NCBI GenBank assembly: GCA_010093605.1
Contig: MU004186.1
Coordinates: forward strand, 2,026,616 to 2,090,615
From: Lophium mytilinum
Taxonomy: Eukaryota
Length of the DNA stretch: 64,000 nucleotides
Direction: 5' to 3'
Shown: positions 50,944 to 60,439 of the stretch, piece after piece
Layout: each line of letters opens with the position of its first letter
Numbering within the stretch: position 1 is the first letter of the stretch
Position numbers and translations under genes: made by a program
Notes under the pieces: generated by a model
What the model saw: the letters and a program-made list of their open reading frames with translations, nothing else
What the model was told of the DNA's origin: nothing
Database searches by the model: none

Positions 50944-51384
50944 ATGTCTCGCCATCATCCGTAGGTCTCTCCGCCTTCCTTCACCTAGATATCAGAGCTA
51001 ACAATCATACTCCAGCGACTTGGTAATGTGCCGCAAGCAGGCTGGAATCGCCATCGGACGCCTGTGCGATAAGTGCGACGGCAAATGCCCCATATGCGAC
51101 AGCTACGTTCGTCCTACAACCATCGCTCGCATCTGCGACGAATGCTCTTTTGGAAACTACCAGAACAAGTGTGTGGTGTGCGGTGGCGACGTAAGTTTTG
51201 GCCGACAACCTATTAGAATACTATGGTAGCTTACAAGGCTGAACTATAGGGCATCTCCGACGCATTCTACTGCTTCGAGTGCACCCGACTCGAGAAAGAT
51301 CGGGACGGCTGCCCCAAGATCATCAATTTGGGCAGTTCGAGGACGGATCTCTTCTACCAGAAAAAGAATTTCAGGAACCACTAA
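50944..51384 (+). CDS. RDS3: PHF5A/Rds3/Ini1 SF3b splicing factor (3 exons)
   Basis: Exons 50944-50960, 51016-51190, 51250-51384 give [39 protein letters not shown]...[36 protein letters not shown]. Confidence 0.98.
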
Positions 51385-51814
51385 CGACAAGGTACGTCCG
51401 GTCTTCAGTCATAGACGGGCGACACTTCACGCATAGACGAGCGAGTTTCATATCAGGAAAAAAAAATCTCTGGATGCACAAGCTATTATACCAAGATTGG
51501 GCGATTAGGCGGGCGATAGAGGGGTCAGTTTCTATTTCGAGTAGGCACTGGGTGGAGTTAGGCCGATTCTACAAATGAAGATCATAAATTGACTTATATC
51601 AGTTCCTCCTTATCTCGAATAGGTGTAGGAGCCACACCCGATTTTTAGAAGCCGATGGTGATTACTGTGCCTCTCCGTAAGTGTGCATACTCTCTTGACA
51701 CTCAATTTGGCTCCTTTCGCAATCCGAATTATGAATGAGGTAAAAGTTCATGAACGGAACAATCCATGAGCTCCATGAGCAATGCTGAAGGCGGAGTGAA
51801 GCTAGTAGCATGAC

Positions 51815-52669
51815 TTAAGCGTCTCCATGAGGACTGAACCACTCCACCGCGCCCCGGCAAGGGCGCGTTATCTTCTCATAAAACTCTAACTCTATCTCCT
51901 CTATCCCCTTCGTAATTTCATCCCCTCCTACTGGATCTATACCCTGATAACTCGCTTTCGCCCAGAAAAGCGCGAGTGTTTGTAAGCACTCGATCATATT
52001 GTTGTCAAAGCGCATCGTAGACCGGTGCAATGCGCCCTTTTGAACCAGCTCCTCGAGAACCGTTGCGAAGTCCGGTGCTTGTCCGTCTGGCTCGAAGACA
52101 TGTATAAAAGACTTCTCCGTTGCACCAACGTCGCGGATGCTTTTCCAGGGAAGCTTCGTATCGAATATAGTGCTCAGAAAGCCGTTGTTTGTGGGGTTAT
52201 CCAGATCGGCTCGTAGATGAAAGATCAGTCTTGGATCCACGGGCATAAGGTCTTCGCTACGAGGCACACGCATCACCCTTGTCAACGTAACTAGCGGCCA
52301 CCAGATCTCTTTCTCTTGGCCGCGTGTTACTTCGTAGCATGTCAGAATCGTCGGTCGAGTGGTCTCCGCCTGCGAAGGCCTCCCTGAGAGCTCCGGTGAC
52401 AGTTGCTTCAAGAAAAGCTCTGGTACTGGCATACGATCTCTGCTCTTCCATTCCTCGCTCGTCTGTTCAAGTTCTGGGGATAGGCTCTTTTGAAAGAGAA
52501 GTTCAGGTAATAGGCTCTTTTGAAAGAGAAACGTTGGGCACTTGCTTTCCTCGGATTTCCCCTTTGCCTCTTCTTGCGCCTTGACAAATAAGTCACGCCG
52601 TTTACGTGACTCTTTCTCAGGATCGAGGAAGAAGTAGACTTCGTTCCCTTTAGAAATAGTATTTCCCAT
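51815..52669 (-). CDS. Hypothetical protein (284 aa) with possible N-myristoylation site and short internal repeats
   Basis: ATG ORF starting MGNTISK. A 30-nt tandem duplication encodes FQKSLLPELL/FQKSLSPEL. Confidence 0.55.
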   Translation of the reverse strand: MGNTISKGNEVYFFLDPEKESRKRRDLFVKAQEEAKGKSEESKCPTFLFQKSLLPELLFQKSLSPELEQTSEEWKSRDRMPVPELFLKQLSPELSGRPSQAETTRPTILTCYEVTRGQEKEIWWPLVTLTRVMRVPRSEDLMPVDPRLIFHLRADLDNPTNNGFLSTIFDTKLPWKSIRDVGATEKSFIHVFEPDGQAPDFATVLEELVQKGALHRSTMRFDNNMIECLQTLALFWAKASYQGIDPVGGDEITKGIEEIELEFYEKITRPCRGAVEWFSPHGDA

Positions 52670-53751
52670 TCTTAGTTTAGCTCGTAATAATATTCTACTT
52701 CATATTAGGAGCTTCAAGGTTTTATGTCAGGATACACTTGCGAGGGATACGTCAGCGAAAGCTATTGTTGTATCAACTTCACTATTGGATTCCATTGTTC
52801 AAGCGTCTTCAATAAGCATATTGCTTCACTTTCGGAGTGTGGTTCGTGACTTGTGACAACACGCCTCTGGGGTCTTTGCTGCCTCGAACACGAGTCATTC
52901 CTAATCAACCATACGCGCTGCTCCATGCCAACAACAAGCGATGGCAGTCATCTCCTTTACTTCCCTATCGTGAGTTGTTATACCCTGATTCCGGAAGAAT
53001 TGAGCCCCCCTTCATGCGACAACGCGGATGATCACCAACAAACGAGCGGACTCTCACTTCCAACACAGCAACTTGGCCTAGAAAGGTGCTGATCTGCATA
53101 CCGAAGCATCTGACCATTGATGGAACTCGAACATCATGTACATGAGCAGTTCCGCTTGCTAGTAGCATTGATTGCTGTAGGTGATTGTCATAATTTAACA
53201 AAAGGGCAGGATATCTGAACTCTGACTCTCCACCGCCACACATAGAGGGGCACGTTCTACGGTTTCGATTTTTGCCCACAAATACTCTACTCGTTCAACT
53301 AGTCTATTGGATTTATTTAGCTAATACATATACTCGTCTTGTAGAGGGATCGCGCGAGCTGTCTCGCTGATCAACCCACGGGGCCGTGAGCATCATACTC
53401 GGGCCCGAGCAGTACTTGAATCCGCCCGAGAAGGGACAATCTAGGAAACTTGGCGGCCCGAGGGTGTAGCGGGTTTTCATAGGCCAGGCTGACTGTCCAC
53501 GCGTGGTCAGGTGGTCTAGGATTAGGGCAACGAATCGAGGACAGAAACAGAGAAGGCACGTTAGGACTCGAAGGAGAAGCTTAAGAGGCGGTGATGAACG
53601 TAGACTTGACGCTAGCTGTGTGACCGAAACCCCCATATAGATGCATGCACAAACAAGCTGTATACCATCACCAGAAGCGCACAGCTCCCAGTTCCTACCA
53701 GATGTATCTACCAAACACTCTCCACTCCCACCCACATCCCCTTACCCCCTC

Positions 53752-54740
53752 CTACTCCCTCGTCGCCCTCCACAAACTCGCCGTCCTCCCCGTCGTCGCC
53801 ACCAGCCCACAAAGCCCCATCAACCCCAAATTCCACCCGGGAAACCCCGTATCCGTGCCAAACTGCACCGCCATCGGGAACCACGCCGAGCTAACCATCA
53901 ACTCGGTCCACCACTGCGCATCCACCGCCTTTTCCTCTTCCTCCTTGAACTCGACCACCGGCCTACCCTCCTCCGTCATGCGCGCCCGCACCGCGCGGCG
54001 CCGCCGCTCCACAACCGCCTGCCTCCCCAGCCGCAGGAAATCGCAGCTCACGCCCACGAGCCAGGAGCGGTAGGCTGCGCGATACACCCGCGCGGTGGCG
54101 GGGGAGCCGTTGTTGAAGCGCGCGACGACCGAGGCCGGGAAGATGCCGGCGTCGGTGAGGAAGCCGATGTTCTCGAGGGCTTGGTAGAGGACGTAGGCGA
54201 TGCATTGGGTGACGGCGATGCGGTGGACGAAGATGTCGTCGTCGGGCTTGGGGCCCTTGAGGAGGGTGCGCAGGCGGGCGTAGAGCGGGATCAGGCTGAA
54301 GAGGCGGAGGGTGGTTCTGGCTTTTGAGATGACGGCGCCGAGGGAGGCGATGGGGGTGGGGGTTCCGGGGGGCGCGATGAGGATTGTGGAGGTTTTGGAA
54401 GAGGTGGATGGGGAGTTTATGAGGGCGCGGAGCTGGGTGGAGAAGGCCGAGGCGGTGGGGGCTTTGGTTTCGAGGTAGGCTAGGAGGTAGAGGGTGTAGC
54501 TAAGGGTGCCGAGGGAGGAGCTGAGGCCGCCGGGGCTGGCCAGGAGTCTGAATGTATATCAGCATAGGTTCATAGAGGCAGCATTGGGGTGACTTACTTG
54601 TTCAACCGCAGTAACAATCGGTCCGCCTGCTTCGGCAGTGCTGTGAAGTGTGATGGCACTGAGACCTCCTTGGAGGCTGCAGCACTGTTCGCATCTTGTG
54701 GCGACGGGGCGCCGGGACCGACTTTCGTTTCGTCAGACAT
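53752..54740 (-). CDS. Peroxin 11 family protein (PEX11C-like), 2 exons
   Basis: ATG 54740, intron ~54548-54597. DRLLLRLNK|LLASPGGLSSSLGTLSY, ARTTLRLFSL, YQALENIGFL, AYRSWLVGVSCDFLRL, C-terminal hydrophobic segment and WRAT. Confidence 0.8.
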
Positions 54741-55111: not shown

Positions 55112-56193
55112 TTACAAGGCAAGCGCGAGTGCGAACAGACCCGCCGCAGCAACTGAACCAACACCAGCACCAATAGCTTGGGCAGCGCCGGTGAACATTG
55201 ACGCCGTTGAAGAGGTGGCCGAGGGCATCATGGTCCCAGTGGGCATCATGGTCACGCTCGCATTTGCAGGCGACGTCGGCATGCCCATCAGAGGGTACGC
55301 CGCGCAGGTCGCGTTGGGAGCGAGAGGGCAGTCCTCAGCCTGGCAGATGCTCTGGAGCTCAGCAGTGCTGTTGGGGAGAATGGCGACGGGAGGTGCGCAT
55401 TTATAGTCGAAGAGCTTGGTCAGGGCCGTGCCGACCGCGGTAACATCATCGTCGGTGACACCGAAAGAAGCTGCGGAGAGGCCGACCTGCATGATGAAAT
55501 AGCCAACTTCGGAAGCGTCGAGGTCCATGAATCTGTGAACATCGCCCATGGAGGTCTTGCCCTGCAGTTGCAACAATCAGCATGCATGTCCGAATTGAAT
55601 ATCGGACGAACCACTTACTTTGTAGCTGGGGAAGCCCATGGCGCCGTACTCGGAGCACTAGTGAGACTGTAAGTGATTGGAGTTACTGAATATAGGTGAA
55701 AAACTTACGCCGAGGAGAGCACCAAAGAACTGGTAGAGATGAGTGATGAGGCCGCTTCTCGAGGTTAGCTGAGTGTTTTCGTTTGGATTCCCATGGAAGG
55801 CACTCACTATTGAATGGAGGATGAGTTGTTGGCAGGCATGTTGAGCATCAACGGAGCAGCTCCGCCGCCATCGAGGAAGTTGACGGCGATAGCTTTGCCG
55901 TTGAAGTTGGTTGAGTCGAGCTCACCAGTGAAATACGGGAGTAGGTTGACTTCCTCGCCCTTGTAGGTTCCCTTGTTGAGGATACCAGTGACGGCAATAC
56001 CGACGTTGGGCTTGGTGTAGTTTCCGATGACAGCGGTGTTCACCAGTAGCGTCAAAAGCGTATATTGGTTTGCGGCCGTGTTGTTCTTGAGAAGGGCGGT
56101 GGTGTAGTAGTCGCAAATGGGCATATCAGCAGGGCGCTGAGCCATAGCTGAGCCAGCAGCAGCAATTGCTGCAAGGATGGTAGAGGAACGCAT
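55112..56193 (-). CDS. Secreted, GPI-anchored protein with truncated-globin (2/2 haemoglobin)-like signature (4 exons)
   Basis: Exons 56193-55808, 55754-55709, 55657-55619, 55561-55112. Signal peptide, LLPYFTG, LITHLYQFFGALLG...YKGKTSMGDVHRFM...AASFGVTDDDV, a Cys cluster, a Ser/Thr stalk, FTGAA and a hydrophobic tail. The gene model is solid; the globin assignment is inference. Confidence 0.85.
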
Positions 56194-57399
56194 TATGATA
56201 ATCAGTGAAGGAGAGACAGGAGCAACGAGGCTGGTATGTTGATGATGACGAGAAGAGCTAGATGGACGAACGAACAAAAGCGACTTTGACGGAATTTATC
56301 AACAATGAATCTACCCCCTACATTACTCTGCGTTCAGCTTGATGCCGCGGTAGCATTTGTTAGGCACGCACCTTCCTGACCATGCTTCAAATCAGTGTGC
56401 CGCTATAGGTTCGCGCGCAACACTCGGTGGCTAAGCAAACCGCCGGAAACATGTTTCCCGTGCTTGTGGTCACTCCTAGGGCCAATGAGAAAGAGGCCGT
56501 ATATAATCTATCTCGATTAGGCGGAGAGAGGAGAAGTGATGATGCAGAGGCGGACGGCAGACAGGATTTCTGAATGCTCGGAGGCGTCTCATCCGTCGAG
56601 CTTGACTGTATGAGGAACAAAGCAACGAAGAAAAGCACCGAAACGGAAATGAGGAACCAGACCCCTCAAACGATCGACGCCACCGTCCGCCGCCGTCGAC
56701 GAGCTTATCCCAAAGCTTGGCCTCTTTAAATCCCCTGGATCTGCTGGGTTGGTCAGACTTCTTACGATGTCCATTCTATTTTCTGTTCTCGCTTCTGCAA
56801 CTCAGGAGACACGCATGTCTCAAACTGACCAGACTTGCGACTGATGGTGGAAGGGAGATACTTGTATAGAATATACAACCCAAGCACCTGGATTCTTTGA
56901 CGTAGAGATGTTGGAGCTGAATGCGGAAGTAGAGGTGGTTGCGTCTTCCACCACGCTGTGCCGCCGTCCGCTCGGGCAGAGACGTTCCCGGCGGTCTTGG
57001 CATGCATGGCCCCTGCGTCTTCTCGCTATTTGAAAGCCCCATGATTTGATTTGATGCATGCTAGCGCCCACACGAAGTCTGTCTTAGCGTGAGAATGCCA
57101 TTGCGACTATTGAATCCTTCACCCAGTCCTACGCCCCAAGCGTGGGCTTACCACGATGACGATGCTGGGCTCTTTTGACTTCTATCACGAGTCAAAGAGT
57201 GGGAGCTGTTCGGACCATTCCGAATATCCGCAAAACCAGTTTCTACAATCTATGAGTTGTATATCTATTGAGATGTCTCTAGATCGCTAAAGGTAAGTTA
57301 TAATACGTTTTGAAATATGTTAACCAGAAGAGAATGGAAGCGCGAATTAGACATTGGATCAGGGGCAGAGAAACACGAGATGGCACACCACTCCCACGT

Positions 57400-58369
57400 T
57401 CACTTCCACAGCACCCCAGGCGCGATAGTTCGGGTTGTCCTTTGAGTCCACGCCGCAGCCATGCGCCCACCCTGGCAGGGCGTGAACTCGCTCGAACAGT
57501 CGGTGTAGTCCATCTGAAACGGGTCTCATTAGCCAGAAAATCTGCAGTGGAGTCTAGACCGGCACTCACAAAGTTCTTGACATTGTCACTCCCGGGCTGG
57601 TCTGGGCAGGAGTCCGTTGCTGGACAGCTGTTGACATCGCCCGGCGTTCCCATTTTCCCATACGATGCAGATGCCTGCGGCCAGGTATCGTCACAAAAGT
57701 CGCTGCCGTTGTCTTGATTGCAACCACCTTCGAAAACGTGTCGAAGACCGAGCCAGTGACCAACTAGAGAATGTTAGAACCACGCTGACAGTGTTTCTTA
57801 GAGGACTGGCACATACTTTCATGCGTAATCGTTCCATCTGGGGCATGGATACCCGACTTCAACGGCACAAGACACCCATCCTGATCGAGTTCGTCTTGTG
57901 TAAGAGGATCCGTCCCATCGAGAGGGTATGTGCATTGCCCATAAGTTGCACCGTTGACCAGATACACATTCAAGCTCTTGTAGTCGCCACGACGGAGCTG
58001 ACGCTGCTTCTCCGCCAGGTCGGGGTCGATATCAGAGGCCCACACTGCGTTGATAGCATAAGAGATGGGCTTGACCTGGAACTGGAAGCCCCACGGCGCA
58101 TACTGTTGCTGGAGATAGTCCACATGGGTAAGTATATCAGTCGCATCGACATAGCCGTCCGCGGCGGTAGGCCCGGCTGTGAGGACGTGAATCCAGAGAT
58201 CGATGGTGATGGTGTCTCGAGTACGGAGATCGTTCAAGCTATCCCTCGCCATTTTAGGGGTAATTGTGAGCGCATGGGTGACATTGCCGCCTGTGTTTCC
58301 ACAGCGAGTGAAGGCACTAACGGACAGAGGAGCAACAATGGCCAAAAGAGCGGCTGTAAAAGTCTTCAT
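57400..58369 (-). CDS. Secreted M43 (pappalysin/MEP1-like) zinc metalloprotease (3 exons)
   Basis: Signal peptide, RCG cysteine switch, LRRGDYKSLNVY, spliced HEIGHWLGLRH (HExxHxxGxxH), and Met-turn NF|MDY. Stop TGA at 57400. Confidence 0.93.
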
Positions 58370-59467: not shown

Positions 59468-60439
59468 TTAGATGAACAGGAGAGCGGCCATACCGGCGGC
59501 ACCTAGGATGGGGCCGGCGGTCATCATGGGCGCACCACCGGTGGAGGTCGCAGACGCAGCGACGGAGCTTGCGGCAGACGCAGCAGACGAGGCGAGGGAT
59601 GAAGCGGCAGAGGCTGCGGACGAGGCCTTGGAGGAGGCAGCGGACGCCGCAGACGAAGCCTTGGAGGAAGCAGCCGATGCGGCCGAGCTGGCACCGCTGG
59701 AGGCAACAGATGCGGCAGAGGACGCGCCAGAGAGGGCAGAGGAGAGAGATCCAGTAGCGCCCTCACCGATGGAGCTGAAGACGGTGGAGAAACCGGTGGT
59801 GACGGGGGTACCAGAGACTGTCGCGACGAGAGGCACAGTAGTGATAGCAGTGACCGAGGCCGAGGAGCCGGAGCCAGTGGCAGACGCTGAAGCCGACGCG
59901 GCAGAGGCAGACGCGGCGGAGCTGGCGGCGGAGGCAGCGGTGGAGAGGATGGTCAAGGCAGAGCCACCGGTGGCACTGGCAGAGGCGAGGAGAGCTATAG
60001 AAAGGTTAGTGAATTGCAACTAGGTGCGGTTGAGGCTGGAGAAGCTCACCCTTGCAGTATGCCTCGCCGTAGGCAATGACAGTAGCAGCCTGGGTAGCTC
60101 CGCAGGCCTCGTTGGCACAGTCGCGAACTCCATAGCCGAAGTTGGGCTCAGTGCAGTAGCAGACCGTGTCGCCGGACTTGCAGCCGAAGGAAGGACCCAG
60201 GCCAAGCATGTTGCTGATGCAGGTTTGCTGCAAGGACGCGGTTAGCTGGGTTACGCAAACGGTACCACGCAATCGGGAGACAATAAAACGCGGGTGGAGA
60301 GGCAATCGACGGATGGGGAACGATGCCAGGCAAGCAATTGAAGACGAGGAAAACTTACTCCGCAAGGGGGCAGGTCGCTGAGGCTCTGGGCCATGGCGAA
60401 GCTGGCACCGACAGCGAGGAGGGCAATTGAGGTCTTCAT
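59468..60439 (-). CDS. GPI-anchored CFEM-domain protein (3 exons)
   Basis: Signal peptide, 8-Cys CFEM domain LPPCG|QTC...GC...CYC...GVRDCANEAC...YC, Ser/Ala-rich stalk, hydrophobic C-terminus. Confidence 0.95.
59560..59740 (-). repeat. Coding tandem repeat (11-aa ASSAASAASSK units) in the CFEM stalk
   Basis: About 5 degenerate 33-nt units. Confidence 0.8.

Follow-up and report, generated by a model that had tools for sequence, protein, structure and literature searches.

A window of 64,000 nucleotides from Lophium mytilinum (contig MU004186.1 of assembly GCA_010093605.1, positions 2,026,616 to 2,090,615 of the forward strand) carries a gene whose 306-residue product, here called the window protein, almost certainly adopts, on the evidence of predicted structures, the 2/2 (truncated) globin fold, with group I as its nearest class. 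It belongs to a widespread family of exported, anchored truncated globins which is apparently undescribed, and this we regard as a well-supported structural finding. Its function can be proposed only tentatively, the best reading being that of a surface-anchored, probably bis-His, haem redox protein. Coordinates below are positions within the window; the gene lies on the minus strand, from 56193 to 55112, in four coding exons.

Fold and class assignment

The AlphaFold2 model of the window protein used 89 sequences; residues 21-250 are modelled with confidence, and helices fall at 26-35, 40-56, 85-89, 127-142, 162-169, 173-189 and 194-208. A second AlphaFold model was made for a relative with short insertions (P0240), using a 10-sequence alignment. 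In a fold search (VIA-align) covering 48,161 solved chains, Z≥8 was reached by 12 chains for each model; every one is a 2/2 truncated haemoglobin, the first five being of group I. The window protein matched Mycobacterium tuberculosis trHbN (1idr) at Z 12.4, with a root-mean-square deviation of 1.8 Å over 117 of 127 residues and approximately 18% structural identity, and the next fold class begins at Z 7.3. The top match of P0240, also of group I, reached Z 14.6 (1.5 Å, 120 of 127 residues, 26% identity). The lead of group I over the best group II chain is small, 0.7-1.7 Z for the window protein and 1.0-2.5 Z for P0240. The predicted model displays the B/E and G/H sandwich, short helix A, long EF loop and short helix F of the 2/2 fold, lacks helix D, and has an aromatic residue at CD1, namely Phe88, in the short helix that follows B and precedes E (a placement based on helix order and motif).

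The sequence evidence is independent of these models and agrees with them. By HHalign the family profile matched group I globins at E 2e-5 (8 sequences) and a group II-type control at E 0.69 (4 sequences); a three-repeat relative matched trHbN at E 0.004-0.011, and a broad family profile matched Tetrahymena trHb at E 0.005. With the whole protein as query, the ESM Atlas gave ascomycete clusters that were all either unnamed or named automatically, while residues 120-215 gave sub-threshold Bac_globin leads. The original prediction, made from the DNA letters, had proposed a group I globin with large insertions and had named a structure search as one check of it; the peptide motifs that it quoted are all present in the spliced product, and the structure, profile and conservation tests agree on the fold. 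Its placement of the GIL motif at the end of helix B finds no support in the model, in which this helix spans residues 40-56 and residues 70-72 lie outside any helix.

Canonically, group I is marked by Gly-Gly pairs at both the AB and the EF corner (PMC4720485). The window protein has no Gly pair at the AB corner, and at the EF corner a single Gly is followed by Cys145. Pfam Bac_globin (PF01152), which the original prediction had suggested as a search, does not match the window protein; three of 89 near members gave matches below the cut-off (best E 0.016), and the cut-off was passed by three of 78 distant members, all of them tandem repeats, on the summed score. Pfam, searched with single exons and with the whole protein, and NCBIfam gave no meaningful match for the window protein. 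An exon-blind PF01152 search of this genome found no canonical truncated globin, which does not show absence. Because the AB Gly-Gly motif, the Pfam cut-off and the distal network of TrHbN-1 all fail, we file the family as a derived subfamily and not as trHbN.

Two other assignments were considered and rejected. Many database entries for this family are named "heme haloperoxidase" or "chloroperoxidase". The proximal Cys motif of haloperoxidases is R-x-P-C-P ... A-N-H-G; either element occurs in 0 of 388 sequences, and no peroxidase Pfam was found among 89 near and 78 distant members. The fold searches listed no haloperoxidase chain, which alone does not exclude that fold. A CFEM domain is likewise not indicated in the window protein, which has no PF05730 match and six Cys instead of eight; the same library does find CFEM in a neighbouring gene.

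Predicted haem pocket

Approximately 60 columns of the family align with globins by sequence. In a gap-free helix-E alignment of the three-repeat relative with trHbN, the family His stands opposite Lys57 and the next Leu opposite residue 58, which is E11 according to the GlnE11 mutant entries in the hit list. This places Leu131 at E7, His134 at E10, Leu135 at E11, Phe138 and Phe139 at E14/E15, His166 at F8 and Phe179 at G8. His166 is the His of the DVHRF motif, which the original prediction had set at the proximal F8 position; in alignments of family members it pairs with the helix-F His of Tetrahymena trHb and with that of M. tuberculosis trHbN, the F8 residue. His134 and His166 are the only histidines in the window protein.

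Counted over the domains that span the residue in question, His166 is retained in 120 of 120 near hits and in 143 of 145 distant ones (98.6%), a conservation among homologues that had been named beforehand as a check. His134 is kept in 119 of 120 near hits and 122 of 132 distant domains (92.4%); of the ten distant domains without it, five are Lys-bearing repeats that belong to a single five-repeat protein. Phe88 (CD1) is found in 121 of 121 near and 121 of 123 distant domains (98.4%), Phe G8 in 96.4%, and the six Cys in 91-99% of domains.

These counts bear on whether the protein binds haem at all. A globin-fold relic without haem, serving as a wall protein or as a binder of another hydrophobic ligand, would fit the remodelling of the domain by two large insertions and a Cys-rich cap, the absence of the AB Gly-Gly motif and of Phe G5, and the failure of Pfam to recognise the window protein. 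The haem-contact positions (His F8, Phe CD1, Phe G8 and His E10) are, however, among the most conserved of the domain at <50% identity, which weighs against such a relic, and we regard it as very unlikely. Judged from its sequence, the window protein quite likely binds haem.

The original prediction had not flagged the conserved His at E10, which opens the possibility of a six-coordinate haem. In the arrangement that we propose, His166 would bind the iron proximally and His134 would probably close the distal side, the remainder of the pocket being apolar (Leu E7, Leu E11, Phe G8 and probably Val B10). Histidines at F8 and E10, in a site that lacks a polar distal network, make six-coordinate iron probable; that both of them ligate the iron is a proposal that we favour on balance. 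Residue B10 is probably Val51 by helix periodicity, with Asn52 as an alternative register, because the global profile alignment failed to span the insertions. The hydrophobic residues placed by alignment at E7, E11 and G8 are TrHbN-2-like, with B10 inferred. In GlbN and THB1 the sixth ligand is a His or Lys at E10, and coordination of this type is described as aiding electron transfer (PMC11904497, section 4; PMC4720485).

Among the functions offered by the original prediction was that of a surface NO (nitric oxide) dioxygenase, in which the oxy form would turn outside NO into nitrate and be re-reduced by a plasma-membrane reductase. Tyr at B10 with Gln at E7 and/or E11 is not found here: E7 and E11 are Leu, and no Tyr is present among the commonest residues at positions 45-57 (helix B) of alignments A1 and A2, so that the hydrogen-bond network associated with high O2 affinity is absent. 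No reductase domain is fused to the protein either. Hexacoordination alone does not exclude NO chemistry. The closest solved folds do include the trHbN of M. tuberculosis and the Tetrahymena trHb, which both detoxify NO (PMC7082302 and a cited title). TyrB10, GlnE7 and GlnE11 confer a high affinity for O2, which suits enzymatic activity, and hydrophobic residues there a low one (PMC11904497, section 4). Moreover, fungi already have cytosolic flavohaemoglobins for this task (PMC3287990). A dioxygenase is thus weakened as an option, and we consider it improbable.

Predicted export and anchoring

The window protein begins with a hydrophobic leader, contains seven N-glycosylation sequons, and ends with a Ser/Thr-rich stalk (35% S+T) followed by an uncharged hydrophobic tail; together with the six Cys, these are the features that the original prediction had described as a signal peptide, extra cysteines, a stalk and a glycosylphosphatidylinositol (GPI) signal. 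Both signals were scored by a hydropathy rule of this analysis, not by SignalP or NetGPI, and this applies to all counts of leaders and tails given here for the family. By this rule the window protein is built like a GPI-anchored protein: besides the leader it has a small residue for the omega site, then a spacer and a hydrophobic C-terminus free of charges. The GPI-like tail test is passed by the window protein and 116 of 118 near members, compared with 126 of 2040 internal control windows. Leader and tail occur together in 111 of the 118 full-length near members (of 120) and in 41 of the 66 full-length distant members (of 149). It is very probable from these sequence features that the window protein is exported and anchored at the cell surface.

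The chain would enter the endoplasmic reticulum, form up to three disulfides, become glycosylated and GPI-anchored, and take up haem b, which would probably be loaded in the secretory pathway. Secreted fungal peroxidases and the cytochromes of cellobiose dehydrogenases take up haem in that pathway. The globin domain would then stand off the membrane on its glycosylated stalk.

Family distribution and architectures

A profile search, in which the 7999 best candidates were scored, found at least 1032 family proteins at 90% clustering; there were 1010 matches among the 50% representatives, many of these being fragments. Named members come from filamentous ascomycetes of the Dothideo-, Sordario-, Eurotio-, Leotio- and Lecanoromycetes, from two Ustilaginomycotina (Tilletiaria and Parajaminaea), from zoosporic fungi (Gonapodya, Boothiomyces and Terramyces), and from the diatom Nitzschia inconspicua. 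An orthologue in Trichoderma virens bears the locus tag TRIVIDRAFT_25639. The diatom member has already been named "bacterial-like globin" by automated pipelines, so the link to globins is not wholly invisible to databases.

Patterns drawn from close relatives, by which distant members would be missed, gave one match in 185,579 prokaryotic genomes. This candidate, in a Pedobacter assembly (L003, 1-529), was rejected as a bacterial member: it is a low-coverage contig of 529 bp with a spliceosomal intron at the family intron-1 position, and is therefore read as a fungal contaminant. Plasmid searches revealed no family member.

Besides the GPI-anchored single domain, the family includes unanchored forms, proteins with 2-5 tandem domains, one member with PIR cell-wall repeats and one fused to a cupredoxin domain (each one of 78 scanned). 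Among the tandem forms, P0151 has five repeats with Lys at E10, and P0121 is a four-repeat diatom member; P0155 is the PIR-repeat member. In the cupredoxin fusion (P0165) the Cu site, read by eye, seems to have kept its His, Cys, His and Met.

Of the 66 full-length distant members, eight cross the membrane once and have a cytoplasmic tail; all of these keep the F8 His and seven the E10 His. They lend some support to a gas or redox sensor, or a low-affinity O2 store, in which the E10 His would swing off on ligand binding and the change be read by a membrane partner or the cytoplasmic tail. Apolar pockets have also been linked to low-affinity O2 binding (PMC11904497). Against this, the window protein and most of the family are GPI-type and have no signalling domain, and both family genes of this genome are GPI-type, which makes the sensor or store rather improbable for the window protein. 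The eight membrane members (P0203, P0212, P0220, P0223, P0227, P0247, P0255 and P0269) have a bulkier E11 residue (Phe, Trp or Met in seven of eight) and are candidate surface sensors in their own right.

Proposed function

A six-coordinate low-spin haem suits one-electron chemistry and not the holding of O2. At the hyphal wall a surface redox carrier or buffer of this kind would pass electrons, or quench peroxide, nitrite and NO-derived oxidants. The fusion to cupredoxin in one relative of the 78 scanned favours such a role, and globin X may serve as a functional analogy for it.

The main rival is a surface haem receptor or hemophore, which would reach the wall empty, clamp environmental haem between His134 and His166, and relay it inward as the CFEM proteins of Candida do. 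Leader, disulfide-rich domain, stalk and GPI anchor match the build of CFEM hemophores (PMC12153323); the GPI, unanchored, PIR-repeat and 2-5-fold tandem forms of the family are those that a relay would have; no reductase is needed; and a gene for a CFEM-GPI protein lies approximately 3.3 kb upstream of the globin gene. That neighbour is not, however, conserved at related loci. The 1.1 kb upstream of the globin gene contains no SreA-, HapX- or SrbA-type site for iron or hypoxia regulators, only four generic GATA sites and one CCAAT, and most of the named hosts are fungi of plants, soil, wood and lichens. As a complete explanation we consider the receptor unlikely, although as regards the role itself, redox chemistry and haem capture stand about even.

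Several observations weigh against a surface bis-His redox protein, and touch each link of the argument. As to the fold, Foldseek gave no match at E≤0.001; the best values were 0.18 for the window protein (to Shewanella benthica HbN, SbHbN) and 0.018 for P0240, with the same proteins ranked first, and according to the VIA-align note a Z under ~13 may reflect a generic arrangement for helical proteins. As to export, the leader test is also passed by 510 of 2040 internal control windows and is therefore weak by itself. As to the haem, the AlphaFold models are haem-free; E10 is commonly a basic residue that aids haem binding without ligating the iron (PMC4720485), the sequence determinants of E10 ligation are described as unclear (PMC7082302), and S. 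benthica HbN, with Met at E10, is five-coordinate when reduced. As to the chemistry, the genes nearby include none for a redox partner, none is conserved in the neighbourhoods, and the cupredoxin fusion, which comes from a two-member cluster, carries Ser and not His at E10. With these points set against the evidence above, we retain the surface-anchored, probably bis-His, haem redox protein as the best reading of the whole chain, while holding it to be somewhat doubtful.

If the family binds haem, it constitutes a third, widespread class of globins in filamentous fungi, and one that lies outside the cell; it also offers a concrete candidate for the handling of haem, oxidants or NO at the surface of moulds, and corrects the "heme haloperoxidase" label of many database entries. 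More broadly, the family might represent an old, previously unrecognised eukaryotic branch of truncated haemoglobins that moved outside the cell and became bis-His haem modules, deployed as GPI-anchored single domains, tandem arrays of 2-5 haems, wall repeats and single-pass receptor ectodomains. These would form a general surface haem system of filamentous fungi and some diatoms that relays electrons and captures haem, with gas or redox sensing added in the transmembrane members; it would have no relation to CFEM proteins, to the cytochromes of cellobiose dehydrogenase or to secreted peroxidases. We judge this wider view to fall just short of an even prospect.

Gene structure and genomic neighbourhood

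The spliced product is identical letter for letter to a database protein (P0001, 306 residues) that NCBI lists as a "hypothetical protein" of L. mytilinum. A 1701-nucleotide contig assembled from run X1, which extends from beyond 56500 down to 55014, skips exactly the three predicted introns and a further one in the 5′ untranslated region (UTR); since four GT..AG introns are skipped it reads as a spliced transcript, the RNA status of the run being a guess by the tool. Runs X2-X5 contain small shares of the gene only (141 bases covered in X2). The original prediction had held that the globin signature lies on micro-exons and is invisible as an open reading frame (ORF). This is correct for helix E and the EF loop; the F8 His is in the long last exon, where the frame is visible.

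Features of the globin gene and of its neighbours in the window (nt, nucleotides; aa, amino acid residues)
Feature	Position	Strand	Description
PHF5-like splicing factor gene	51002-51400	+	
Open frame	51815-52699	-	294 aa, short internal repeat near start, no Pfam match
PEX11 peroxisomal biogenesis gene	~53752-54700	-	directly downstream of globin gene
Globin gene, exon 4	55112..55561	-	450 nt including stop, aa 158-306: helix F with His166 (F8), helices G (Phe179 at G8) and H, Cys-rich cap (Cys212, 230, 235, 243), Ser/Thr stalk (~250-281), GPI-like signal (candidate omega site near Gly282, inferred)
Intron 3	55562..55618	-	57 nt, GT..AG
Micro-exon 3	55619..55657	-	39 nt, aa 145-157: Cys145, EF loop with conserved Tyr156
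Intron 2	55658..55708	-	51 nt, GT..AG
Micro-exon 2	55709..55754	-	46 nt, aa 129-144: helix E with Leu131 (E7), His134 (E10), Leu135 (E11), Phe138/Phe139 (E14/E15)
Intron 1	55755..55807	-	53 nt, phase 2, GT..AG; position common to paralogue on contig C14 and locus L003
Exon 1	55808..56193	-	386 nt, aa 1-128: signal-peptide-like leader (~aa 1-18), helix A with Cys27, helix B (40-56), insertion 1, helix C with Phe88 (CD1), insertion 2
5′ UTR intron	56318..56371	-	54 nt, GT..AG; upstream of start codon, from assembled transcript contig
M43 (pappalysin-type) metalloprotease gene	~57279-58366	-	secreted, intron-split; directly upstream of globin gene
CFEM-domain gene	59468-60439	-	Pfam E 1.5e-13; leader, long Ser/Ala stalk, GPI-like tail

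A paralogue in the same genome, on contig C14 (L002, 860-1965), is 42-52% identical, has a single intron at the shared intron-1 position, keeps both histidines and ends in a GPI-like tail; no third family copy was found in this genome. The neighbouring CFEM gene has an Asp-Cys pair at the position of the haem-ligating Asp of hemophore CFEMs. A neighbourhood of PEX11, M43 protease and CFEM-GPI genes was not found around relatives, either at 23 of 80 metagenome loci (those of at least 3.5 kb) or at the paralogue locus; the 236 flanking ORF pieces from these loci, several of which are short or redundant, gave no match and no CFEM pattern.

Comparison with known systems

No description of the family was found in the main texts of the literature searched (supplements on secretome structures could list the fold), and term look-ups in the main texts of PMC4720485, PMC7475203, PMC8717448 and PMC9816061 gave none. 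The locus tags of five fungal orthologues, in six spellings, are in no main text of that literature. In the census of Hoogewijs et al. 2012 (PMC3287990), the fungal globins are flavohaemoglobins and sensor globins plus two zoosporic cases of group 1: T globins of this group were present in 2 of 165 fungal genomes and in none of the Dikarya. The two, from Allomyces and Batrachochytrium, are a 116-residue single domain and a fusion to a leucine-rich-repeat protein. The present family shares with them a group 1 T globin in fungi, and differs in being exported and in occurring in many Pezizomycotina.

With the group I TrHbN-1 proteins (1idr, Tetrahymena 3aq5, Paramecium and Chlamydomonas eugametos) the family shares the 2/2 fold over nearly the whole domain, His F8, Phe E14/E15, the Tyr-x-Gly of the EF loop and the Met-x-x-x-His pattern of helix F. 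Unlike them it has neither TyrB10 nor GlnE11, carries Phe at G8, two insertions of ~25-35 residues and six conserved Cys, and adds the leader, stalk and GPI-like tail. The trHbN of M. tuberculosis is itself reportedly surface-associated.

Cyanobacterial GlbN and Chlamydomonas THB1/2/4 are cytosolic and have a polar distal network. They resemble the family in a potential ligand at E10, a distal His in the former and Lys in the latter (PMC11904497, PMC7082302 and PMC4720485), the hexacoordination of the window protein being a prediction. Since that protein has only two His, it lacks one for a GlbN-type covalent haem link.

The apolar B10, E7, E11 and G8 positions recall TrHbN-2 of S. benthica, and also a bacterial group I comparison set, in which B10 is Val, Ile or Leu (107 scored), E7 is Leu in 116 of 116 and E11 is Leu in 114 of 116. 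A hydrophobic leader is present in 111 of the 116 and a lipobox-like Cys in 79, in what is one clade and not a survey; export of group I globins is therefore not unique to the fungal family, and the statement in the original prediction that truncated globins are normally cytosolic was too strong. In contrast to the family, E10 in this set is mostly Met (His in 4 of 116), and there are no large insertions, Cys cap or GPI anchor. These bacterial sequences (L101, L102, P0396-P0515) form a large clade of leader-bearing group I globins with apolar pockets, possibly periplasmic or lipoproteins.

Vertebrate globin X is membrane-anchored, hexacoordinate and disulfide-sensitive, has been proposed to act in electron transfer and in defence against reactive oxygen species, and protects cells from H2O2 (PMC7475203). 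It differs from the family in its 3/3 fold, N-acylation and intracellular location, and the resemblance is one of analogy only. The CFEM hemophores Rbt5, Pga7 and Csa2 share with the family the leader, the small disulfide-rich domain, the stalk, and GPI-anchored or secreted forms (PMC12153323), and are candidate functional analogues. Their fold is unrelated, the window protein has no CFEM Pfam match, and its candidate ligand is His. The haem ligand of CFEM proteins is Asp.
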